Of a stretch of DNA of 64,000 nt, positions 5,062 to 53,046 are shown piece by piece. Source of the stretch: Escherichia coli 042 (GTDB taxonomy: Bacteria > Pseudomonadota > Gammaproteobacteria > Enterobacterales > Enterobacteriaceae); the NCBI RefSeq assembly GCF_000027125.1, contig NC_017626.1; one strand, given 5' to 3'. Each line of letters opens with the position of its first letter. The stretch's first letter is position 1. The notes below the pieces were generated by a model. The model made no database searches and was not told where the DNA came from. It saw only the letters and a list, made by a program, of their open reading frames with translations. The position numbers were made by a program, and so were the translations under genes.

Positions 5062-5227
5062 CACATCAACGGTTTGACGTACAGACCATTAAAGCAGTGT
5101 AGTAAGGCAAGTCCCTTCAAGAGTTATCGTTGATACCCCTCGTAGTGCACATTCCTTTAACGCTTCAAAATCTGTAAAGCACGCCATATCGCCGAAAGGC
5201 ACACTTAATTATTAAAGGTAATACACT

Positions 5228-5440
5228 ATGTCCGGTAAAATGACTGGTATCGTAAAATGGTTCAACGCTGACAAAGGCTTCGGCTTCATCACTCCTGACG
5301 ATGGCTCTAAAGACGTGTTCGTACACTTCTCTGCTATCCAGAACGATGGTTACAAATCTCTGGACGAAGGTCAGAAAGTGTCCTTCACCATCGAAAGCGG
5401 CGCTAAAGGCCCGGCAGCTGGCAACGTAACCAGCCTGTAA
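5228..5440 (+). CDS. cspA: Major cold shock protein CspA
   Basis: 70 aa [38 protein letters not shown]... with RNP1/RNP2 cold-shock domain motifs. Confidence 0.98.
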
Positions 5441-5468
5441 TCTCTGCTTAAAAGCACAGAATCTAAGA

Positions 5469-5497
5469 TCCCTGCCATTTGGCGGGGATTTTTTTAT
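5469..5497 (+). terminator. cspA rho-independent terminator
   Basis: Hairpin ccctgccatttggcgggg followed by a run of 7 T. Confidence 0.7.
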
Positions 5498-5627
5498 TTG
5501 TTTTTCAGGAAATAAATAATCGATCGCGTAATAGAATCTAGTGTTATTTTTGTGAAGAATAAATTTGGGTGCAATGAGAATGCGCAACACCGTAAGAAAG
5601 GCGGGAATAATTTCCCGCCGAAGACGC

Positions 5628-5780
5628 TTACTCTTTCAATTTGCAGGCTAAAAACGCCGCCAGCTCATAACTCTCCTGTTTAATATGCAATTCACACAGT
5701 GAATCTCTTATCATCCAGGTGAAAAATAAAAGCGTGAAACAAATCACTATTAAAGAAAGTAATCTATATTTCTGCGGCAT
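5628..5780 (-). CDS. hokA: Hok-family type I toxin HokA (small membrane peptide)
   Basis: 50 aa MPQKYRLLSLIVICFTLLFFTWMIRDSLCELHIKQESYELAAFLACKLKE; Hok/Gef family. Track ORF extends 20 codons further upstream in frame. Confidence 0.85.
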   Translation of the reverse strand: MPQKYRLLSLIVICFTLLFFTWMIRDSLCELHIKQESYELAAFLACKLKE

Positions 5781-6060
5781 TCCCAGCCCCCTGTGTTGAT
5801 TTCCAACGAGTAAGAGGCTAACCTTATGGTGTCTATGCATAGAGGGGCCTCACTTTGATTTATAGTCAGGTGGGGCTTTTCTCTGTCTGCCTTTCGGTGA
5901 ATACCTGAGACAAACAGTCTCAAGCACCCGCAGCTATTCTAGCTTAATAAGTTCGTTTCTTCTCCTTGATATAATCCTAAAAAAATCTCATAAAATTAAT
6001 ATATGAGACAATCTTTATTCAGCAGAAGATTATTAAAGGTTGCTCTATTATTTAGCGATA

Positions 6061-19940: not shown

Positions 19941-19989
19941 CGATGATGAGAATTGTCGGCGTCACATCAGGTAACCCAGCACAACCACC

Positions 19990-20040
19990 TGATACGAGCA
20001 AAAGCCTTATCCGACTGACAAGTCGGATAAGGCTCGAGGA
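19990..20040. repeat. REP-like palindromic hairpin downstream of xylR
   Basis: Inverted repeat gccttatccgact / agtcggataaggc. Confidence 0.45.
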
Positions 20041-24658: not shown

Positions 24659-24772
24659 GCCTGATGCGCTACGCTTATCAGGCCTACATGATTTCTGCAA
24701 TATATTGAATTTGGTAGAATTTGTAGGCCGGATAAGGCGTTTTAGCCGCATCCGGCATAAACAAAGCGCACT
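24659..24772. repeat. REP/BIME cluster
   Basis: gcctgatgcgctacgcttatcaggcctaca and gtaggccggataaggcgtt...gccgcatccggca REP-type palindromes. Confidence 0.75.
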
Positions 24773-33790: not shown

Positions 33791-34479
33791 AGCAACTGAA
33801 AGCCGACGTGCTGGCGGCAAATCTGGCACTTCCCGCTCACCATCTGGTGACGTTCACCTGGGGCAATGTCAGCGCGGTAGACGAAACGCGGCAATGGATG
33901 GTAATCAAACCTTCCGGCGTCGAGTACGACGTGATGACCGCCGACGATATGGTGGTGGTTGAGATAGCCAGCGGCAAGGTGGTGGAAGGTAGCAAAAAGC
34001 CCTCGTCCGATACGCCAACGCATCTGGCGCTTTACCGTCGCTATGCCGAAATCGGTGGCATTGTGCATAACCACTCGCGCCATGCCACCATCTGGTCACA
34101 GGCCGGGCTGGATCTCCCCGCCTGGGGCACCACGCACGCTGATTATTTCTATGGCGCAATCCCCTGCACGCGACAGATGACCGCAGAGGAGATCAACGGC
34201 GAGTATGAATACCAGACCGGCGAAGTGATCATTGAAACTTTCGAAGAACGCGGCAGGAGTCCGGCGCAAATCCCGGCGGTGCTGGTGCATTCTCACGGCC
34301 CGTTCGCATGGGGTGAAAACGCCGCCGATGCGGTGCATAATGCCGTAGTACTGGAAGAATGCGCCTATATGGGCCTGTTCTCGCGCCAGCTTGCGCCACA
34401 GCTCCCTGCGATGCAAAACGAACTGTTGGATAAGCACTACCTGCGTAAGCATGGGGCCAATGCCTATTACGGGCAGTAA
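33784..34479 (+). CDS. sgbE: L-ribulose-5-phosphate 4-epimerase
   Basis: 231 aa class II aldolase/adducin fold, [30 protein letters not shown]... Confidence 0.93.
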
Positions 34480-34510
34480 TCCCTCACGCCGGGGCTTCAT
34501 TGCCCCGGCA

Positions 34511-35326
34511 CTACGAATTGATATGTTCCTTGCTGTAACGCCGCTTCCACGCTGCTGGCGTTAAACCAGTGTGTTTGCGAAAAATCTGCCGGAAATAGCC
34601 AACGTCATTAAACCCGCACAACGCCGCCACTTCCGTGAGCGATCGCGCTTCGCTAATTAACAGCTTTTCGGCTTCGCGCACTCGCTGGCGATGGATTGCT
34701 TCTGTTAACGTCAGATGAAACACCCGCCGATAGACGCGCCCAAGATAATCGGCATTGCAGTACAGCTCGCGGGCTAAAAGCGCCGTGGAAAGCGGGCGAT
34801 GATATTGCGTGCGGATCAGTTTCTGCGCTTTCCAGGCAAGCGTGGTACCTGCGGCATCGGCCTGTTCATCAAGACGCGCGTCACGGGTGAGTTGCTGCAA
34901 AATCAGCAGCACAATAAACTCCAGCGCCGGAGTGCGCTGATGCTTTTCCTGTTCGCTTAAGAACTGGCGAAACAGGGCCACCAGCGCCTGCGGATCGGCA
35001 ACCTTCGTTTGTTGCGGCACGCTAAGATGAGTGAGCCAGCGCGGGTCGCTATCCGGCGCTTTAACCTCAAAATGCAGCCAGTAAAATTTGAGATCGGCGG
35101 GAAAATCCTCTACCCCAACATGCTGTCGGTTCGGCCAGAGTAATAAACTCTCTCCCGCATCGACCAGAAATATCCGCTCTTCTTCCTGAATCGCTAATCG
35201 ACCTTTTTCGACAAAGATAATTTCCCATGACTCCAGCCGCCTTGCCGGATGCCTCCCTACGCCACGGGAAATAAATAATCCACCATTTTGCACTTTAATC
35301 GGTAACGTCATGGATAATTCGAGCAT
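34511..35326 (-). CDS. AraC-family transcriptional regulator (N-terminal cupin-like sensor, C-terminal double HTH)
   Basis: 271 aa; C-terminal AraC signature region (...DYLGRVYRRVFHLTLTEAIHRQRVREAEKLL...FNDVGYFRQIFRKHTGLTPAAWKRR). Not part of the recalled K-12 gene order between sgbE and yiaT. Confidence 0.85.
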   Translation of the reverse strand: MLELSMTLPIKVQNGGLFISRGVGRHPARRLESWEIIFVEKGRLAIQEEERIFLVDAGESLLLWPNRQHVGVEDFPADLKFYWLHFEVKAPDSDPRWLTHLSVPQQTKVADPQALVALFRQFLSEQEKHQRTPALEFIVLLILQQLTRDARLDEQADAAGTTLAWKAQKLIRTQYHRPLSTALLARELYCNADYLGRVYRRVFHLTLTEAIHRQRVREAEKLLISEARSLTEVAALCGFNDVGYFRQIFRKHTGLTPAAWKRRYSKEHINS

Positions 35327-35348
35327 TGATATGTAATTTCCCGCTTAT

Positions 35349-35402
35349 TCATTAATGATTAAACACATTACCTTTTGATTATTAATCAAAAACATTAATT
35401 TC
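35349..35402. promoter_or_regulatory. Palindromic AT-rich sites in the divergent AraC / transporter promoter region
   Basis: TCATTAATGA (35349-35358) and TTGATTA-T-TAATCAA (35376-35390) palindromes plus further ATTAAT repeats; seen directly. Confidence 0.4.
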
Positions 35403-35551
35403 ACCTGATCCAATTCACACTTTTAAATTCAGGTCGGAATCGTCACCTTTTTTTACTCTTTTCTCGCCTTGTTGATATTCCCGTTCACGGCAGAATTAAT
35501 CATGTCATTGCAATAAAACTAAAAATTGCACCCTATTCACGAGGAATATCT

Positions 35552-36952
35552 ATGACCTCTACACCGATTACTACCGCTGATATCGCTAAAGGTAAAATTG
35601 ACGATGCGTTATCTGTACGGGAAAAAATAGGCTACGGCCTGGGTGACGCAGGCGGCACCGTAATAACTTGCCTGATCATGAACTTTCTCACCTTTTTCTA
35701 CACCGACGTTTTTGGCTTAACTCCGGCGCTGGTCGGCACGCTGTTTATTGCACTGCGCGTGTTTGATGCCATCTCCGACCCGGTGATGGGCGTCATTGCC
35801 GACCGGACGCAAAGTCACTGGGGGCGCTTTCGTCCGTGGCAGTTATGGATTGCCATTCCCATCGGCATTATCGGCATCCTGACGTTCACCGTGCCAGATG
35901 CCAGCATGGGAGTAAAAATCGCCTGGGCGTTCGGCACTTACCTGCTCCTTTCAGTCGGTTATACCGCCATCAACGTGCCGTACTGCGCGCTGATCAACAC
36001 CATGACCACCCGCCACAATGAAGTGATCTCCTGCCAGTCCTGGCGATTCGTTCTCTGCGGTGTAGCGGGATTTCTGGTTTCGGTAGGCTTACCGTGGATG
36101 GTGGATCTCTTCGGTCAGGGTAATGCCGCGCGCGGCTATCAACTGGGCGTCGGCGTGCTGTGCGCCATCGCTGTGGTGATGTTCCTGTGCTGTTTCTTCT
36201 GGGTTCGTGAACGGGTACCACTCTCCACAATGGGGAAATTTACCCTGCGCGAACATCTTGCCGGGCTGCGAAACAACGACCAACTGCTGCTGATGCTGGT
36301 CATGTCTTTCCTGCTGATTAACGTCTTTAATATTCGCGGCGGTGGGTATATGTACTTCATTACCTACGTCTTACAAGGCAGTACGGGCTACACGTCGCTG
36401 TTCTTCACTATGGTCACCTTCGCCTCCATTATCGGCTCGGTGATTGTCAGCCCGTTAACGCGACGTTTCGATACCGTCAAAATTTATTACTACACCAACC
36501 TGCTCCTCGCTTCACTGGCGGTGTTGATGTGGTTCCTGCCCTCCGGCCCGGCTTATCAAACGCTGTGGCTGGCGGTGATCCTCGGTAATGGCGTGATTCT
36601 TGGCTTCACATTGCCACTGCACTTCTCATTGATGGCCTTTGCCGATGACTACGGCGAGTGGAAAACCCGCGTACGTTCTTCCGGCATGAACTTCGCCTTC
36701 AATCTGTTTTTCATCAAACTGGCCTGGGCCTCCAGCGCCGGGATCATCAGCCTGCTGTTTATTTTTGTCGCCTACCAGCCAGGCGTAGAAAACCAGACCG
36801 CCAGTTCGCTTGGCGGGATCGCGGCGATGGAAACATTGCTGCCTGCGCTGTTCCACCTGCTGCTGGCGATGGCGATCCGCTTTTGCAAACTCAATAACCC
36901 TATGATGTCACGCATTGCTAGCGACCTGCGTCAGCGTCATGTACAGCCTTAA
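35552..36952 (+). CDS. GPH-family (glycoside-pentoside-hexuronide) sugar:cation symporter
   Basis: 466 aa, 12-TM MFS-like; N-terminal GYGLGD...G and [18 protein letters not shown] motifs typical of MelB/YicJ/YihO-type GPH transporters. Confidence 0.85.
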
Positions 36953-36962
36953 GGAGCACAAG

Positions 36963-38933
36963 ATGAACATTTCGGAAGTCGATCTGCATAAACTGACGGT
37001 CAGCGATCCGTTCCTCGGTCAGTACCAACAACTGGTCCGCGACGTGGTGATTCCTTATCAGTGGGATGCCTTGAACGATCGTATCCCAGAAGCGGAACCC
37101 AGCCATGCGATTGAAAACTTTCGCATTGCCGCAGGACTGCAAGACGGTGAATTTTACGGGATGGTGTTTCAGGACAGCGACGTCGCCAAATGGCTGGAAG
37201 CGGTAGCCTGGTCGCTGTGCCAGAAGCCGGATGCCGAACTGGAAAAAACCGCTGACGAGGTAATCGAACTGGTCGCTTCCGCCCAGTGCGAAGATGGCTA
37301 TCTCAATACTTACTTTACGGTAAAAGCGCCCGAAGAACGCTGGAGCAATCTGGCGGAGTGTCATGAACTTTACTGCGCCGGTCATCTGATTGAAGCCGGA
37401 GTCGCCTTCTTCCAGGCCACGGGCAAGCGGCGCTTGCTGGAAGTGGTTTGCCGTCTGGCCGATCATATCGACAGCGTATTTGGTCCAGGTGAAAGTAAGT
37501 TACACGGTTATCCTGGTCACCCGGAAATTGAACTGGCACTAATGCGCCTGTATGAAGTGACCGAAGAGCCGCGCTACCTGGCGCTGGCGAACTATTTTGT
37601 CGAACAGCGTGGTGCGCAACCGCACTATTACGACCAGGAATATGAAAAGCGCGGGCAGACCTCGCACTGGCACACCTACGGCCCGGCGTGGATGGTGAAA
37701 GATAAAGCCTACAGCCAGGCGCATTTACCCATCGCACAGCAACAAACCGCCATCGGACATGCAGTACGCTTTGTATATCTGATGACTGGCGTCGCACATC
37801 TGGCGCGTTTAAGTCACGATGAAAGCAAGCGTCAGGATTGCCTGCGGCTGTGGAACAATATGGCCCAGCGTCAGTTATATATTACCGGCGGCATTGGCTC
37901 ACAAAGCAGCGGCGAAGCGTTCAGCAGCGATTACGATCTGCCGAATGACACGGTATACGCCGAAAGCTGTGCTTCCATCGGCCTGATGATGTTCGCCCGG
38001 CGAATGCTGGAAATGGAAGGCGACAGTCAATATGCCGATGTGATGGAGCGCGCACTGTACAACACCGTGCTCGGCGGCATGGCGCTGGATGGCAAACATT
38101 TCTTCTATGTGAATCCGCTGGAAGTGCATCCAAAAACGTTAAAATTCAACCATATCTACGATCACGTTAAGCCGATCCGCCAGCGTTGGTTTGGTTGCGC
38201 TTGTTGTCCGCCAAATATCGCCCGCGTGCTAACCTCGATTGGTCATTATCTCTACACGCCGCGTGAAGATGCGTTGTATATCAACATCTACGCAGGAAAC
38301 AGCATGGAAGTGCCGGTAGAAAATGGCACGCTGCGTCTGCGGGTTAGCGGAAACTATCCGTGGCAGGAGCAGGTGACGATTGCGGTTGAATCGCCCCAGC
38401 CGGTGCGTCATACGCTGGCTTTACGTCTGCCGGACTGGTGCACACAGCCGCAGATCATATTGAATGGGGAAGAGGTCGGGCAGGATATTCGTAAAGGGTA
38501 TTTGCACATTACCCGCGAATGGCAGGAGGGCGATACGCTGAATCTGACTTTGCCGATGCCGGTACGCCGCGTTTACGGTAACCCTCAGGTGCGTCACGTC
38601 GCCGGAAAAGTGGCGATTCAGCGCGGCCCGCTGGTGTATTGCCTGGAACAGGCCGACAACGGCGAGTCACTGCATAACCTGTGGCTGCCCGCCGATGCGC
38701 CATTTACGACATTTGAAGGCAAGGGATTGTTCCGCCATAAGATCTTAATCCAGGCTCCGGGTTACCGGTATGAACAGAGCAATCCAGAGCAGCAACCGCT
38801 GTGGCATTACGACAGCGCGCCAGCCAAACGCCAGCCGCAAACCCTGACCTTTATCCCGTGGTTTAGCTGGGCCAACCGGGGTGAAGGCGAAATGCGGATC
38901 TGGGTGAATGAGGAAAAGCATTGCCATCCGTAG
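36963..38933 (+). CDS. Glycoside hydrolase family 127 (DUF1680) protein, putative beta-L-arabinofuranosidase-like
   Basis: 656 aa from ATG 36963 with AAGGAG SD 7 bp upstream; Cys-rich segment WFGCACCPPNIARV resembles the recalled zinc/cysteine active-site region of HypBA1-type GH127 enzymes. Family assignment from memory. Confidence 0.7.
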   Translation: MNISEVDLHKLTVSDPFLGQYQQLVRDVVIPYQWDALNDRIPEAEPSHAIENFRIAAGLQDGEFYGMVFQDSDVAKWLEAVAWSLCQKPDAELEKTADEVIELVASAQCEDGYLNTYFTVKAPEERWSNLAECHELYCAGHLIEAGVAFFQATGKRRLLEVVCRLADHIDSVFGPGESKLHGYPGHPEIELALMRLYEVTEEPRYLALANYFVEQRGAQPHYYDQEYEKRGQTSHWHTYGPAWMVKDKAYSQAHLPIAQQQTAIGHAVRFVYLMTGVAHLARLSHDESKRQDCLRLWNNMAQRQLYITGGIGSQSSGEAFSSDYDLPNDTVYAESCASIGLMMFARRMLEMEGDSQYADVMERALYNTVLGGMALDGKHFFYVNPLEVHPKTLKFNHIYDHVKPIRQRWFGCACCPPNIARVLTSIGHYLYTPREDALYINIYAGNSMEVPVENGTLRLRVSGNYPWQEQVTIAVESPQPVRHTLALRLPDWCTQPQIILNGEEVGQDIRKGYLHITREWQEGDTLNLTLPMPVRRVYGNPQVRHVAGKVAIQRGPLVYCLEQADNGESLHNLWLPADAPFTTFEGKGLFRHKILIQAPGYRYEQSNPEQQPLWHYDSAPAKRQPQTLTFIPWFSWANRGEGEMRIWVNEEKHCHP

Positions 38934-39050
38934 GTTGGATAAGGCACTCGCGCCGCATCCAACGTAAGGAGCACATTGCCTGATGCGACGCTTAACACGT
39001 CTTATCAGGCATACAAGTCGGTGCGAGAGTGTAGGCCAGCCGCACCGACA
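38934..39050. repeat. REP/BIME palindromic elements
   Basis: cgccgcatcc...tgcctgatgcgacgcttaacacgtcttatcaggcatac... REP-type palindromes between the GH127 gene and yiaT. Confidence 0.65.
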
Positions 39051-39926: not shown

Positions 39927-40901
39927 ATGACAAAATTACAACTTAAGTACCGGGAGTTAAAAATTATCTCGGTAATCGCTGCCAGTGAAAATATCAGCCA
40001 TGCCGCGACTGTACTTGGCATCGCACAGGCCAACGTCAGCAAATATCTTGCTGATTTTGAATCAAAAGTGGGTTTAAAAGTTTTTGACCGAACCACCCGA
40101 CAACTGATGCTCACACCTTTTGGCACCGCGCTATTACCGTACATCAACGACATGCTGGACAGAAACGAGCAGCTTAATAATTTTATTGCAGATTATAAGC
40201 ATGAGAAACGTGGTCGGGTCACCATCTACGCCCCAACCGGCATAATTACCTATTTATCCAAACATGTAATCGATAAAATTAAAGATATCGGTGATATCAC
40301 CTTATCGCTAAAAACCTGCAATCTTGAGCGTAATGCCTTTTATGAAGGCGTCGAATTTCCTGATGATTGTGATGTTTTAATCAGCTATGCCCCACCAAAA
40401 GATGAATCGCTGGTTGCCAGTTTTATTACCCAATATGCCGTAACCGCTTATGCCAGCCAGCGCTATCTTGAGAAACATCCCATTAGCCGTCCTGACGAAC
40501 TCGAACATCACTCCTGTATTTTGATCGACTCGATGATGATCGACGACGCGAATATCTGGCGCTTCAACGTCGCCGGGAGTAAAGAGGTGCGGGATTATCG
40601 CGTGAAGGGAAATGACGTTTGCGACAACACGCAATCGGCGCTGGAGCTGGCACGAAATCACCTGGGGATTGTGTTTGCGCCAGACAAAAGTGTGCAGAGC
40701 GATCTGCAAGACGGCACGCTGGTGCCCTGCTTTCAGCAACCCTATGAATGGTGGCTGGATCTGGTGGCTATCTTCCGTAAACGGGAATACCAGCCCTGGC
40801 GGGTCCAGTATGTGCTGGATGAAATGCTGCGTGAAATTCGCCACCAGCTTGCTCAGTCGCAGCAACTGCGGCCTGAACAAGCGGCGGAAAGCGAAGATTA
40901 A
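39927..40901 (+). CDS. yiaU: LysR-family transcriptional regulator YiaU
   Basis: 324 aa, N-terminal LysR HTH (…[23 protein letters not shown]…). Confidence 0.9.
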
Positions 40902-42034
40902 TGATCGAGATAAAGGTAATGCACCCAACTGGTCATGCGTAACAGCACTTTGCGCATCACCGAGACATGGCTGAAATGATCAGAGTAAACCGCCACCTGG
41001 GCGTAAATACCGTCTGGTAAAGCGCTCAAATCAGTGTGCTCATCCAGTTCAATGGTCGCGATAACGCCATCTGAACCCGGCGCTGTGTTTAACGTCTGTA
41101 AGGTGCCGGTCGACTGATAAGCTCCGCCGGGAACGGCTGGACTAATGGCTGCCAGCTTACCGCTGAATACCTTACCTGGCAGAGCATTAAACACCACTTC
41201 CGCATCGTCGCCAGGAGCCAGTCGCAGCAAGGAGTTCTGACGGAACTGCGCCACGATTTGTCGTTTCTGATCGGGTATAAACACCATCACCGGACGTAGC
41301 GGCAGCGACGCGGCATAGGTACCCGGACGAATCAGGACCTGAGTCACATAACCATCGCTCGGCGCACGCACTATCGTCTGCTCAAGGTTATATTTTGCTT
41401 CCGCGAGCTGCGCTTTCAGGCTGGCGATTTGAGAATGTTCACCCAACACCAGGCTATCCAGCTGGCTCTGGATCTGTTTTTGTTCCGCTGCCGATGACTT
41501 TACGGAGGCTTCCTGCGCCAGATAATTTTGCCGCGCCACATCGATATCGCGTTCTGAAAACGGGTTTACTTTCGCCTGGCTGCCGCGTGCGTAACGCTGA
41601 TACTCTTTAGCGAATTTATCCCGCGTGGCCTTTGCCTGCTGAGTATTCGCCACCATCTCATCTAACTCTGCGCCCAACGCCCGCTGTTTATGTTCTGCGG
41701 TAACGATATCCGCCATCAGCCGATCCACCCGCGCCTGATAACGCGTCGGGTCCAGTCGAAATAGCACTTCACCTTTTTTAATCAGCGTATTTTTCTTATC
41801 CGTCACTTCAATCACCACACCAGTCACCTGTGGGACAACAGGAATAGAAATAACCGCTTTTTGCGCTTTAAAGGTATACGGATGGTTATAGTTCATTAAC
41901 AGAATTAGACCGCTGACAATAAATATTCCACCCAGGGCCGCTGTGGGAATGGTCCATTTATTTACGGGAATTTTGAAGATCTTAAACATTGCCCATGCAA
42001 AAGCCACATAGGTCAAAATAATCAGTAAATCCAT
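40898..42034 (-). CDS. yiaV: HlyD-family membrane fusion-like protein YiaV
   Basis: 378 aa, N-terminal TM helix, coiled-coil, barrel-sandwich hybrid; overlaps yiaU stop by 4 bp (convergent). Confidence 0.9.
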
Positions 42035-42039
42035 AAGTA

Positions 42040-42363
42040 TTACTCGGCAGAAGAGGATTTGATGTCGGCGAGCTGTTTCTCCAGCCCGGCAATGCGCTGT
42101 TGCAGTTGCATAACGGATGAATCATGGCTTTGCATTCCCCATCCCCGCTCCGGGCGGTAAAGCGTGGCCCAAATCCACAAAAACGGCCAGATAACATGTA
42201 ACGTAAAAAGACTCACCCAACCAGCAACATGAATGGCGTCGGCATGAGGATGATTACGTTTTTTAGCAATCAGGTAGGGAATATCATGTAAAATAATAAT
42301 CCCATAAAATATCACCAGAAATACAAAAATAAGCACTCCCAGCGCAAAATAGTCCAGGAACAT
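42040..42363 (-). CDS. yiaW: Small inner membrane protein YiaW (DUF3302)
   Basis: 107 aa from [30 protein letters not shown]; track ORF over-extended by 10 codons. Confidence 0.88.
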
Positions 42364-42476
42364 ATTTCCCTCAAAGAATATAAAAAAGAACAATTAACGC
42401 ATATTATGAAATGCCATGATGCAGTGCAATTTCCTTATTTATATAACGACATATTGTTTTTTATATACTTTCTGAA

Positions 42477-42689
42477 GTGTGCTGCGTGGCTTTTCAACAG
42501 GTCGAGGTTTATCATATTGAAATAATGGAACTATTGACCAAGCTAATGAATAACTCCAGTAAAACATCCACAGTACAGATAAAGCGTATTAAACCTTCAA
42601 TTATCTACCGTTTATTGCTGATTGGCCTCGGAACGCCAATGGTGATTTACGGCCTGGTTTGCCCGCTCACCATCGAAACGCGAGATTAA
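42477..42689 (+). CDS. Candidate small membrane protein (hypothetical; coding status uncertain)
   Basis: 70-codon ORF (or 54 from internal MELLTK...) with one hydrophobic helix (RLLLIGLGTPMVIYGLVCPL); weak RBS; divergent from yiaW. Confidence 0.2.
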   Translation: MCCVAFQQVEVYHIEIMELLTKLMNNSSKTSTVQIKRIKPSIIYRLLLIGLGTPMVIYGLVCPLTIETRD

Positions 42690-42779
42690 ACTCCTGGCAA
42701 AACACGCCCCAGAAACGCACTTCTGTTGGCGTAGTCTGGGTTATTGCGCACGTAGGTTTAAAACGTAAATTGTAACAAC

Positions 42780-42885
42780 GTGCGCTTTGTTTATGCCGGA
42801 TGCGGCGTGTACGCCTTATCCGGCCTACGGTCAGGTCCCCGTAGGCATGATAAGACGAGTAAGCGTCGCATCAGGCAATGAATAC
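42780..42885. repeat. REP/BIME cluster downstream of aldB
   Basis: gccggatgcggcgtgtacgccttatccggcctacg and cgtaggcatgataagacgagtaagcgtcgcatcaggca palindromes. Confidence 0.7.
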
Positions 42886-44553: not shown

Positions 44554-45849
44554 CTACAGCGGGTAATGTGCGACGTACACGGCTTGCTGGTCATTAATTT
44601 TCTTCTCTTGCGCAAACCCTTCTTTAACAATCGTCCGTAAATCAGCTCGAGCCGTATTATCAGAGACGCCCAGGCTCGCGCTAATTTCAGCAACTGTGTA
44701 CTCTTTCCCCGGATTGGCGAGCATCACATTCAGGAGCGTTACCTGGCGAGGATTCAAGCGTTTAAGCACGCCAGAGCTAAACAGCACACTATCGAATTTT
44801 GCGCTTCGTTGCATAATTTCATCAATATGCTGCTGCCAGTTTTGCAAAGCACGTTTAATGACACCCGCCTGATAATCAAGGAAATAAGTCAGATCCATAC
44901 CATCTGATTCAGTGTACTGGCAGCTGGCGGCATATTTGACCGGTGCAGCATGAAGCAAACGGCTGATGGAAATATATTTAAAGACATCGTAGCCCGATTT
45001 CAGCATATACCAGTAAAACAGTGCCCGACTGGTGCGCCCGTTGCCATCGCGAAATGGATGTTCATGGGCCAGCATAAAATGCAGAATGCAGGCACGGATT
45101 AACGGGTGAATATACCCTTCATGGCTGTTTAACCACTGGCAAACTTTTTCCAGCCGTTCCAGCAACAATGCCGCAGCGGGCGGTTGGTGCACAATATTGC
45201 CGTCATAGTCGGCGATCACAACATCATCTGTTTCACGAAATTCTCCCGGACGATATTTCGCGTCATTGATTCCACCCATACCAATGGCATGTAACTGGCG
45301 AATAAGCGCAGTCGTCAGCGGTTCTGCGAGTAAGTGCGGAATTTCCGCCATCAGCCGGGCATTTCCCGCAATCATATGCTCGTCTTCAGTGCGTGGCGAC
45401 CGCCCTGTTTCCAGCATTTTTCTCGCCACCAGCGTTGTAGTATTCGCACCTTCCAGCTGGGAGCTGGTGATCGGCTCTTCCAGGCGTAACTGGCTTAACT
45501 CGGCTCCGGCCCCGCGTAACCGTTCAGTCTGATCTTTCAGCGCCAGCGCGGTAGCACGTTTGTCGACAAGCTCGCACGCTTCTGCAATCACCGGGGTAAT
45601 GTTGAATCCGGCCTGTTCACCCGCTTCATTGCAATAATTAATTCGTTGGATCGCCGCGTTGCGCGCCAGACGGGTAAGCGTCCACGCCACATCGACGTTT
45701 TCTCCTTTTTTGATGCGGTACTGCAACTCATCAAAAGGTAGATAACGTCCTTTTTCATCGGTAACCCGGTTAAAGCGCAGGTGGGCCTGGAGTTCCTCAC
45801 CCGATAAGTGTGATAAAGGAATAAGTCCGGGAGGTGATTTGATAGCCAT
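44554..45849 (-). CDS. Fic-family protein (class II, internal inhibitory helix) with C-terminal wHTH-like domain
   Basis: 431 aa; canonical Fic active-site motif [12 protein letters not shown]; upstream inhibitory-type motif SSQLEG ([S/T]xxxE[G/N]); C-terminal segment [39 protein letters not shown] resembles a winged HTH. Not in the recalled K-12 aldB-yiaY gene order. Confidence 0.85.
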
Positions 45850-45854
45850 GTGCT

Positions 45855-45935
45855 TATCTCAAAAAAGCGCAATATTGAGATAGTGTATAGCAGGAAAGAG
45901 AAACTATCTCAAAAATCGCAAATTTTGAGATAGTT
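45855..45935. promoter_or_regulatory. Two palindromic operator-like sites upstream of the Fic gene
   Basis: TATCTCAA-N12-TTGAGATA (45855-45882) and perfect 13-bp arms AACTATCTCAAAA-N8-TTTTGAGATAGTT (45902-45935), immediately upstream of the Fic start codon. Confidence 0.5.
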
Positions 45936-45940
45936 TAAAA

Positions 45941-50649: not shown

Positions 50650-51258
50650 TCAAGCCTTTGGCGGTTCGGTGCGAGCAAAACTTTCGCGGCTAAACAGGTT
50701 TTCGACCAGTTTGACTAAGTGTGGGCGGTCGACACACCAGCCTGGCGCAACGCGGCGGAAATTGAGATATCCGACGGCACAGGCAATGGCGATAGTCGCC
50801 AGATTGACCGTATCGGTTTTGAGCGTGCCATCGACCAGATATCCTTCCAGCACATCCAGACTGCGGTTGATTTTCTCCCGCTGGCGTAACAATTCATCTT
50901 CAGACTGCTGCGCCGCCGGACGCGCCTGTTCACGCACCGATACCAGCCCGGCATCCATAATGCCATCCGCCAGCGCCTCAATTTTGCGCACCCGCAACGA
51001 CTCCAGCGGATCGCGCGGCAACATCGCCGGAGCGACATTCATTAATTCAATATATTCAGCGATGATCGGCGAATCAAACCAACATTCGCCCTCTTCGGTC
51101 ACCAGCACCGGCACTTTCCCTAACGGGTTAAATTGCGCCACGCCGTTGTCCGCGTTATAGGGCAGTTCATTAATAAATTCGAAAGTTATGCCCTTTTCTA
51201 ACAACAGAATAGAAAGTTTGCGTACAAACGGGCTGGTGTAGCTACCGACGAGTTTCAT
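50650..51258 (-). CDS. yibF: Glutathione S-transferase-like protein YibF
   Basis: 202 aa [28 protein letters not shown]... GST N-terminal thioredoxin fold. Confidence 0.92.
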
Positions 51259-51328
51259 GCCGAGTCCTTTGTGCGAGGAAAAATATCAGTATGGCTCAGG
51301 CTCACGCAAAACACAGGTGATATAAGTC

Positions 51329-52465
51329 TCAATGATCCAAATAAAGATAATGCATCCAACTGGTCATTCTTAGCAGCACCTTCCGCATCACCGAAACATG
51401 GCTGAAATGGTCGGAGTAAACTGCCACCTGGGCGTAAATGCCGTCGGGTAAGGCATCGATATCATCGTTAGGGTCCAGTTCAATGGTTCCCAGCACACCG
51501 TCCGTGCCGGGCACGACCGTTAATGATTGCAATACCCCCTGCGCCTGATAAGAACCGCCTGGCACGACAGGTAAAATACTGGTCAGTTTGCCGTGGAACA
51601 CCTGCCCAGGTAGCGCGTTAAACACCACTTCCGCATCATCGCCGGGTTTCAGACGTAACAGCGAGTTTTGCCGAAATTGGGCGACAATTTGCCGTTTTTG
51701 CTCGGGGATGAAAACCATCACCGGACGCAACGGCAAGGCAGCTGCGTATGTACCTGGGCGGATCAGTACCTGAGTAACGTAGCCATTGCTCGGCGCGCGA
51801 ATGACAGTCTGCTCAAGGTTATATTTTGCTTCAGTAAGTTGCGCTCTTAAGCTCACAATCTGCGACTGCTCGCCGTTAACCATACTGTCGAGCTGGCTCT
51901 GGATCTGCGCCTGCTCCGCCACCGAGCCTTTCACCAGCGCATCCTGCGCGAGGAAATTTTGCCGCGCATCGTCGATGTCACGTTCCGAGAACGGATTCAC
52001 CGCCGCCTGGCTGCCTTTCAGGTAACGTTGATAATTTTTAAACAGACGGTCGCGCTCCGCTGAAACCTGGGTGGTGTTGGCCTGCGCTTCAGTGAGCTGC
52101 GCGCGCAGCGTCTTTATATTATGCGTCGCCGTCATCAGGTCAGCCTGAAGTCTGTCAACTCGCGCCTGGTAACGGACCGGGTCGAGTTTAAAAAGCACCT
52201 CGCCCTTTTGAATAAGCTGATTATTTTTGTCAGTGACTTCAGTAACAATTCCCGTCACCTGTGGCGTGATGGGGATCGCTATCACTGCCTTTTGCGCGGT
52301 AAAAGTGTAAGGGTGATTGTAGTTCATCAACAAAATCAAACCACTCACCAGAAACACGCCTCCCAGCGCCGCCGTCGCCAGCGTCCACTGATTTACCGGA
52401 ATGCGGAAGATTTTAAAGACCGCCCACGCCAGCGCCACGTAAGTTAAAACGATCAATAGATCCAT
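51329..52465 (-). CDS. yibH: HlyD-family membrane fusion-like protein YibH (paralogue of YiaV)
   Basis: 378 aa; by eye roughly three quarters identical to the YiaV ORF at 40898-42034, identical termini (MDLLI... / ...HYLYLDH). Confidence 0.9.
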
Positions 52466-52467
52466 AA

Positions 52468-52830
52468 TTAGATCTCCGGGAACGTGGAATAGTCAGTCTT
52501 TTTCTCGGCGGCGAGTTGATGCTCCAGCCGGGAAATTCGGTCAGAAAGTGCGGCGATTTCCGGGTCAGTCGCTTTCTCCTGCGACGTAACATGTGACTGC
52601 ATACCCCAGCCACGCTCCGGTTGATAGAGCGTCGCCCAGATCCACAGAAACGGCCAGATAACATGCAGAGTAAACAGGCTCACCCAGCCCGCCGTATGAA
52701 TAGCGTCGGCATGGGGATGGTTGCGCTTTTTGGCAATCAGATAAGGGATGTCATGTATCGCGATGATTCCATAAAAAATCACCAGAAAGACGAAGATCAG
52801 CACTCCCAACGCGAAATAGTTTAGAAACAT
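52468..52830 (-). CDS. yibI: Small inner membrane protein YibI (DUF3302; paralogue of YiaW)
   Basis: 120 aa [30 protein letters not shown]...; 2-bp gap to yibH. Confidence 0.9.
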
Positions 52831-53046
52831 ATCTGCCTCGGATTCACGTTTATCGGTGTTGTTTTTTGGCTGGCAGCCAGAAGGGAGTCAGGCTGATATT
52901 TTGACAATAATCCGGGTTCGCGATTCTCGCCATAACACCAAAGAATAATTTTAAGAGGTGATGAGTTGCTTAGTTACATAACGATTTCATGACGAAGGCA
53001 TAACATGCTGTAGATCACATCAGGTGAACGCCGTAAGAAAATATCT

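Follow-up and report, generated by a model that had tools for sequence, protein, structure and literature searches.

REP pairs at four sites in a 64-kb stretch of the Escherichia coli 042 chromosome: their types, their variation between strains and their relation to gene-content junctions

The REP sequences, or palindromic units, of Escherichia coli and the BIMEs into which they are combined have been described over several decades (Stern 1984; Gilson 1991; Bachellier 1994-1999, summarised in PMC3333891). As defined in the text of that source (Ton-Hoang 2012, PMC3333891), a REP is an imperfect palindrome of 30-40 nt with GTAG at its 5' end and belongs to type y, z1 or z2. BIME-1 is described there as a z1 and a y unit joined by a conserved long L linker, which often holds an IHF site, and occurring in single copy, and BIME-2 as a z2 and a y unit with short linkers, arranged in tandem in a copy number that varies between strains. 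The same account presents the TnpA-REP protein, which binds single-stranded REP bearing GTAG, cuts iREPs and linkers at C|T and can recombine BIMEs in vitro, and it places a RAYT gene in K-12. The roles ascribed to REPs involve IHF, Pol I, gyrase, mRNA stability and termination (PMC3479197), with gyrase assigned to the y units of BIME-2 (PMC6379681).

Here, we describe four REP sites in a stretch of 64,000 nt from E. coli 042, referred to as the window, and compare them with the corresponding loci of other E. coli genomes. We consider the identity and type of the repeat units, then their variation in number, and lastly the extent to which differences in gene content between strains coincide with them.

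Gene setting, identity and anatomy of the repeats

The order of genes in the window, taken from the annotation of NZ_AP022298.1 and of K-12 MG1655, begins with yiaG, cspA/hokA, glySQ, xylBA-FGHR, bax, malS and avtA, continues with ysaA, yiaJ-sgbE, genes for an AraC regulator, an MFS transporter and a GH127 hydrolase, yiaT, yiaU, yiaV, yiaW and aldB, and ends with a Fic gene, yiaY, selBA, yibF, yibHI, mtlADR, yibT, yibL, a DUF3251 gene and a gene for a YadA-like adhesin. Several features of this stretch are recorded for their own sake. At 5068-5929, Rfam recognises the cspA thermoregulator with 498 bits and, at the hokA locus, the sok antitoxin RNA with 120 bits. The yiaV-yiaW (40900-42372) and yibH-yibI (51331-52839) genes form paralogous pairs, each of an HlyD-family and a DUF3302 gene, which lie 10.4 kb apart in direct orientation and share 73-78% DNA identity, and in NZ_AP022298.1, otherwise the closest genome, yibF carries an ISVsa5 (IS4-like) insertion that the window is without (L015 11407-13353 against window 50650-51258), which sets the window apart as a close relative of that assembly. 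After yibL, 58671-64000 holds the DUF3251 gene and the YadA-like trimeric autotransporter adhesin, which has internal repeats at a spacing of 207-312 nt; the compared K-12 stretch has no match past window position 58111.

All four clusters are extragenic, at the 3' ends of genes or between cistrons. Cluster 1 lies between the convergent avtA and ysaA, its z1 unit beginning 5 nt past the avtA stop codon, and cluster 2 between the convergent GH127 gene and yiaT, where the GH127 stop codon TAG (38931-38933) sits inside the GTAG of the y unit. Cluster 3 is found downstream of aldB, a minus-strand gene, and about 400 nt upstream of yiaW, with its z2 unit 31 nt past the aldB stop codon, and cluster 4 is intercistronic, between mtlA and mtlD within the mtlADR operon. 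The preliminary description of this region had set the clusters at operon and insertion boundaries; an operon boundary is correct for three of the four (avtA/ysaA, GH127/yiaT and 3' of aldB) and incorrect for mtlA/mtlD. As a separate observation, the GTAG that ends GH127 is GGAG in SWHEFF_69, where the ORF extends as far as a TAA within the REP, in GGATAAGG (L011 7631-7643); the stop codon is supplied by the repeat in the alleles of both the window and SWHEFF_69.

A scan of the whole window with a 14-nt REP core, GTAGGCCKGATAAG, gave five exact matches, seven with at most one mismatch and eight with at most two, for which 40 dinucleotide-preserving shuffles gave means of 0.025, 0.025 and 0.575, respectively. 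All eight matches fall inside the four clusters, each of which has one unit per orientation. An nhmmer profile made from the eight units recovered just those eight, with E-values from 4e-11 to 5.5e-8, and revealed no further REP elsewhere in the window; the next best match (E = 0.29) is a perfect-palindrome hairpin between xylR and bax at 19989-20015. The units are 29-37 nt long, and the imperfect hairpin formed by each (z -2.6 to -4.9) contains an interior mismatch or bulge and leaves GTAG/CTAC unpaired at its foot. GTAG and the full core occur together in six of the eight, the exceptions being the z2 unit of cluster 2, which has GTAT, and the y unit of the same cluster, which reads GTAGGTTGG.

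Sequence is shared between the loci as well, at 82-100% identity over 33-61 nt (repeats D10, D13, I1, I2 and I8). Among the matches listed, REP-containing queries have a median of at least 20-38 matching places per E. coli genome, and REP-free queries from the same region have one. Of 5426 complete E. coli genomes, 5425 are matched by a 601-nt query around cluster 1, which is 100% identical to NZ_AP022298.1; REP sequences are multi-copy in the same number of genomes. Chance palindromes were ruled out by the shuffles together with the profile scan. Nothing speaks against the identification, and we regard it as practically certain that all four sites belong, as ordinary members, to the REP (palindromic unit) family of E. 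coli, each BIME being an oppositely oriented REP pair. The REP-type palindromes proposed earlier at these four ranges are confirmed by both the consensus scan, which had been suggested as a check, and their multi-copy nature, and the list of four is complete for the window as judged by the profile. The feature table of K-12 (NC_000913.3) returned no repeat_region features.

The y and z labels used here were derived from the definitions given in the text of PMC3333891. Judged by their sequence, clusters 1 and 4 are BIME-1, composed of z1(i), an L linker of 35 or 36 nt and y, and over the element they are 82-100% identical to each other (D10, D13). Cluster 1 opens with a z1 unit at 24659-24687 on the minus strand (an iREP on the plus strand; exact core, E 5.5e-8, hairpin z -4.06), of which the z1 unit of cluster 4 is an identical copy (D13, 100%). 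The 35-nt L linker follows at 24688-24722 and contains a putative IHF site at 24698-24710 (minus strand), ATTCAATATATTG, with one mismatch to the consensus WATCAANNNNTTR, as well as a match to the Rfam model ES036. The element then closes with a plus-strand y unit at 24723-24756, recognised by core, profile and hairpin, and a 15-nt tail motif, ATAAACAAAGCGCAC, at 24757-24771, which is common to cluster 3; y unit and tail (24723-24771) are 92% complementary over 49 nt to 42780-42828 (inverted repeat I1). Cluster 4 repeats this plan, with the z1 unit at 55321-55349 on the minus strand (an iREP on the plus strand), recognised by core, profile and hairpin in addition to D13, a 36-nt L linker at 55350-55385 holding a weaker IHF-like match, ATTCAACAAACTG, with two mismatches, and a plus-strand y unit at 55386-55419 (core, E 4.1e-11, z -3.76), on which naRNA4 gives a half-match of 41.3 bits.

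Clusters 2 and 3 are, on the same grounds, best called BIME-2-like or atypical, being single y+z2 pairs. In cluster 2, a degenerate y unit at 38930-38963 (plus strand; core with two mismatches, E 2e-8, z -3.38) is followed after a 14-nt linker by a z2 unit at 38978-39014 (minus strand, iREP on plus; core, E 2.9e-9, z -4.91). Just beyond it, at 39017-39049, lies a hairpin, GTCGGTGCG...CGCACCGAC (z -3.61), whose loop contains a truncated REP head, GTAGGCC, at 39031-39037. Cluster 3 has the reverse arrangement, y(i) then z2: the tail motif (42780-42794) and y unit (42795-42828, an iREP on plus) form a minus-strand feature at 42780-42828 (core, repeats I1 and I2, E 6.9e-11, z -3.28), separated by 12 nt from a plus-strand z2 unit at 42841-42876 (core, E 1.1e-8, z -2.56). 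No tandem BIME-2 multiples were found at either cluster, single pairs being present in all sampled alleles; tandem y/z2 growth, to four and eight REPs, is seen only at mtlA/mtlD and in other strains.

Two other readings of such hairpins have to be considered at this point. If they were gene-specific Rho-independent terminators or attenuators, alike by chance, their place at the 3' ends of genes, their stable stems and the AATTTTT that follows the minus-strand z1 unit of cluster 1 would be accounted for. However, no compact stem is followed by a T-run, and a simple scan called none of the REP or BoxC hairpins terminator-like, so that a terminator role is unsupported by the sequence. The identity of 82-100% over 33-61 nt across loci, the tens of copies in each genome and the dispensability of whole units in many strains also argue against this reading, which is extremely improbable and, as the sole explanation, is refuted by copy number. 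It is also very unlikely that the elements are small-RNA genes rather than passive repeats. Such genes are suggested by the match to ES036 (RF02751) at 24680-24722 on the minus strand, which at 38.9 bits exceeds the gathering score of 37.6, by the partial naRNA4 matches on the y units and by the published report, in PMC4550694, of transcription from about 80% of REPs and of a role for REP325 RNA in organising the nucleoid. Yet the ES036 model, 43 nt long, is in effect a BIME-1 L linker plus a REP head, and its match restates BIME-1; the corresponding linker of cluster 4 scores a sub-threshold 18.6 bits; the naRNA4 matches are half-length and, at 31-41 bits, lie below the gathering score of 59.5; a scan of all clusters found no adjoining promoter-like sites; and the entire BIME of cluster 1 is missing in some of the sampled genomes, 3 of 20 evenly spaced rows.

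Variation in repeat number and the BoxC-like element

Once identified as REP/BIME elements, the repeats prove to be hot spots of small-scale polymorphism, BIMEs varying in presence or copy number at avtA/ysaA, mtlA/mtlD and xylR/bax. The view that REP regions vary between strains is thereby upheld, since BIMEs are absent from some strains and one locus holds 0, 2, 4 or 8 REPs. At avtA/ysaA, the BIME-1 is precisely absent in ECOD1-type genomes, these being the 3 of 20 evenly spaced rows mentioned above. The xylR/bax spacer is a fifth BIME site, which is empty in this strain: the K-12 pair, made of a y-type REP and a degenerate second unit (L003 1192-1305) and found in 1698 of 5426 genomes, is absent at window 19975-20000, where a segment of about 113 bp in K-12 corresponds to one of about 25 bp, a net difference of 88 bp. 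The mtlA/mtlD locus has no REP in KY174, two in the window and in K-12, four in FDAARGOS_1303 and eight in MSB2_1A, the added units being tandem y/z2 repeats, and about 20% of genomes cover the mtlA-mtlD spacer of the window over less than 80% of its length.

This spacer holds a second kind of repeat. Of the range 55285-55460 that had been given as REP, the pair at 55321-55419 is indeed REP, and the flanking segments 55287-55314 and 55424-55479 are BoxC/TMECO-like hairpins, the right one of which extends past 55460. The left segment is a GC-rich, non-REP hairpin, CCCACCTCTCC-ACAT-GGAGAAGGTGGGG (z -4.02), that forms a partial direct repeat with the first hairpin in the right segment, a BoxC/PIT/TMECO-like element of the form CCCCTCTCC-ACAT-GGAGAGGG-TTT-GGGTGAGGG-AAAAG-CCTCACCCC-AG-CCCTCTC (z -3.51), which is kept in five of five aligned mtlA-mtlD alleles, including the REP-less one. 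The published BoxC/TMECO consensus is CCCTCNCCC-N3-6-GGGNGAGGG-N3-GGGNGAGGG (Holder 2015, PMC4666352), and, taking it as given there, 55424-55456 fits if the first two blocks are 8 nt long with a 4-nt loop, and has two mismatches against strict 9-nt blocks.

We also observed that a CCCTCTCC-N4-GGAGAGGG hairpin occurs as a direct repeat on the two sides of the mtlA-mtlD BIME-1, its right-hand copy lying in the BoxC/TMECO-like 56-mer, and that the REP-less allele of KY174 has a single copy of this hairpin. The BIME-1 might be an insertion that duplicated the hairpin; alternatively, the REP-less allele may have arisen by deletion between the repeats.

Gene-content junctions and the sgbE-aldB interval

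Comparison of the window with K-12 by blastn and by reading of the junctions gave five differences, of which the empty xylR/bax site has been described. A further one is the absence from K-12 of 34614-38636, a 4-kb deletion with both ends inside genes. Its remnants are annotated in K-12 as the pseudogenes ysaC and ysaD (L003 15813-16109), and K-12 is therefore the deleted, derived state for the AraC-MFS-GH127 block (34511-38933), which occurs in 2311 of 5426 E. coli genomes (about 43%); for this reason, calling accessory insertions by comparison with K-12 is misleading here. Blastn and junction reading found no REP at the ends of this deletion, and none was ever seen at the left border of the block (34479-34511). 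A second K-12 deletion, of 205 bp, lies between 9-bp direct repeats, CCAGCCGCA (38831-38839 and 39036-39044), and takes out the 3' end of GH127 together with both REPs of cluster 2; the right-hand copy of the 9-mer, in the hairpin at 39017-39049, overlaps the truncated REP head.

The two remaining differences lie away from REPs. The Fic gene (44559-45927) is placed between aldB and yiaY, on the other side of aldB from cluster 3 and 1.65 kb from it, with no REP at either junction. A Fic-spanning query has a median of one place per genome and finds full coverage in 1572 of 5426 genomes; those sampled from the remainder have an empty aldB-yiaY site. Likewise, at 51295-51328 the window is without the 8.2-kb K-12 element rhsA-yibA-yibJ-yibG, yibH coming directly after yibF, and no REP lies near this junction. 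Just upstream of Fic, there are in addition two partly palindromic direct repeats of 33 nt (TATCTCAAAAA...TTGAGATAG), at 45855-45887 and 45905-45937, which may be operator sites.

Two of the clusters had been taken in the preliminary description to border accessory insertions. This does not hold for Fic, cluster 3 being at the far end of aldB, and for the AraC-MFS-GH127 block it is true only trivially, in that the final gene of the block has a REP pair after it.

At least seven structural alleles make the interval from sgbE to aldB a mosaic hot spot; the approximate shares given here were estimated from evenly spaced rows of match rankings. About 45% of genomes have the K-12 type and about 17% the window type; an O157 type without yiaK-sgbE and a REP-free B2 type, in which sgbE and aldB are joined by 46 bp, each account for about 8%. 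The other three are an R2 type, which lacks yiaTUVW and runs GH127, y, iREP, a 35-nt L-like linker, z2 and aldB; a SWHEFF_69 type, running GH127, y, z2(i), hicBA, a restriction gene and aldB; and a DETEC-S586 type, with GH127, a partial z2, hicBA and aldB. A yiaW-REP-aldB junction like that of the window is present in 3784 of 5426 genomes.

Within this interval, the variable yiaTUVW module has cluster 2 on one side and cluster 3 on the other. In alleles without it, homology to the window ends on the left at 38916, 14 nt before the y unit, or at 39016 or 39024, 2-10 nt past the z2 iREP. On the right, it ends at 42841, the first base of the cluster 3 z2 REP, in the R2 type, and at 42659, in a hicB remnant away from any REP, in the hicAB type. 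The middle iREP of R2 has the left flank of cluster 2 and the body of cluster 3, and switches from one to the other within TGCC (CATTGCC|GGATGCGG). Its linker measures 35 nt, against 12 nt in five of five sampled yiaTUVW alleles. The insertion point of yiaTUVW in the window is outside the REP, 10-11 nt past the z2 iREP, in a run, AAGTCGGTGC, that SWHEFF_69 has as well. Of the sequences around the module, we note further that the yiaW-aldB spacer preserves 34 nt from the 3' end of a hicB antitoxin gene as a remnant at 42657-42690, and that other strains have an intact hicAB where the window has yiaTUVW, in some cases together with a gene for a restriction endonuclease.

It is possible, though we consider it doubtful, that the REP clusters served as recombination substrates behind the accessory-gene differences of the window, either by exchange between REPs or by REP-targeted integration. 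The arrangement around yiaTUVW is suggestive, with iREPs of the same orientation on its two sides (z2 at 38978-39014 and y at 42795-42828), with the passage in R2 from the flank of cluster 2 to the body of cluster 3 within four bases and with breaks in other alleles at 38916, 39016 and 39024, positions that lie 14, 2 and 10 nt away from the closest REP unit. The 205-bp K-12 deletion also has its right end in a truncated REP head, and REPs have been described as IS targets and variable loci (PMC1525189; PMC3333891). On the other hand, that small deletion is accounted for by its 9-bp direct repeat, and REP-free junctions are found at the 4-kb K-12 deletion, Fic, rhsA, the 46-bp sgbE-aldB joint of the B2 type, the loss of yiaK-sgbE in the O157 type and the adhesin block. 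A direct REP x REP deletion from a yiaTUVW allele was considered as the origin of R2 and is unsupported, given the 35-nt, L-type linker in R2 and the 12-nt linker in all five alleles sampled, and the point at which yiaTUVW was inserted is outside the REP. Repeats and indel breakpoints may, moreover, merely share the sole tolerant space, the intergenic DNA at 3' ends, and the events in this interval are few and non-independent.

The R2 switch thus looks like a REP-associated exchange, a resemblance weakened by the linker, the hicB remnant and the insertion point outside the REP, and these three observations therefore point to a history of several steps. A more specific version, in which yiaTUVW and perhaps the hicAB/restriction-gene cassettes are exchanged by RAYT single-strand cleavage and joining with BIMEs as cassette borders, has a slim chance of being correct. 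What hints at it is that the R2 switch is limited to the four bases TGCC, the position of the 'iREP-I' site TGCC|TGAT, a sequence that z-type iREPs carry and at which cleavage by TnpA-REP in vitro is reported, in the account of PMC3333891. Returning to the window as a whole, most differences in gene content have junctions free of REPs. The comparison of junctions across strains therefore divides the earlier expectation: most gene-content junctions are without REP, while in alleles lacking yiaTUVW the joints coincide with REP units or lie no more than 15 nt from them. The sgbE-aldB interval could be used as a test bed for REP-associated rearrangement.

Likely roles and comparison with known repeat systems

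Family membership, structure, location and polymorphism are observed directly here, and functional roles are taken from the literature. From it, the REPs would be non-coding, non-autonomous repeats that are transcribed within the 3' or intercistronic RNA of neighbouring genes, where their hairpins would slow exonucleolytic decay from the 3' end and could modulate termination or translation. Reportedly, from work by Liang, Rudd and Deutscher in 2015, translation of a gene is lowered, through ribosome stalling, by a REP lying no more than 15 nt from its stop codon, an effect which would apply to avtA and GH127. As DNA, the L linker would bind IHF and the y units of BIME-2 would bind DNA gyrase, and the spread and reshuffling of the units are thought to be due to TnpA-REP/RAYT encoded elsewhere in the genome.

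The closest described systems can now be set against the four sites. The BoxC/PIT/TMECO repeats, which form intrastrand triplexes, resemble 55424-55456 in sequence, in intergenic position and in a locus that varies between strains, the match being near and not strict (PMC4666352); mtlA is absent from the main text of that paper, whose Table 1 gives 23 K-12 loci. REPIN/RAYT systems (Nunvar 2010, PMC2817692; Bertels & Rainey 2011, PMC3116915; Ton-Hoang 2012) are alike in having inverted pairs that behave as sharp-edged units of presence or absence, as at avtA/ysaA, and in the tandem amplification seen at mtlA/mtlD in MSB2_1A. There is no RAYT gene within the window, and no target-site signature was found.

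RIP/RIB elements are said to be BIME-1 that bind IHF, as described in 1993 by Oppenheim and by Boccard and Prentki. They and the ES036 model resemble cluster 1, whose linker carries AAATTCAATATATTGCA, with one mismatch to the IHF consensus and hence a candidate site on sequence grounds; the linker between GH127 and aldB in R2 has the same core, AAATTCAATATATTGCA, and that of cluster 4 is more divergent (two mismatches, 18.6 bits).

The K-12 copies at these loci are already contained in the reference genome, and the sites accordingly have little value as a discovery; their use lies in caution and in annotation, in which the four would be labelled BIME-1 or BIME-2-like and mtlA-mtlD would be given a BoxC-like element as well. 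Everything described here fits the known biology of REPs and BIMEs, whose types, IHF linkers, variation in number and place in genome plasticity have been known for decades. With the E. coli REP/BIME family the four sites share the GTAG and the imperfect palindrome of 30-40 nt, the inverted pairing, the extragenic 3' location, the high copy number and the variation in number between strains. There is no essential difference from that family, the peculiarities of this region being that clusters 2 and 3 are single pairs, that one y unit is degenerate and that a truncated head follows cluster 2.
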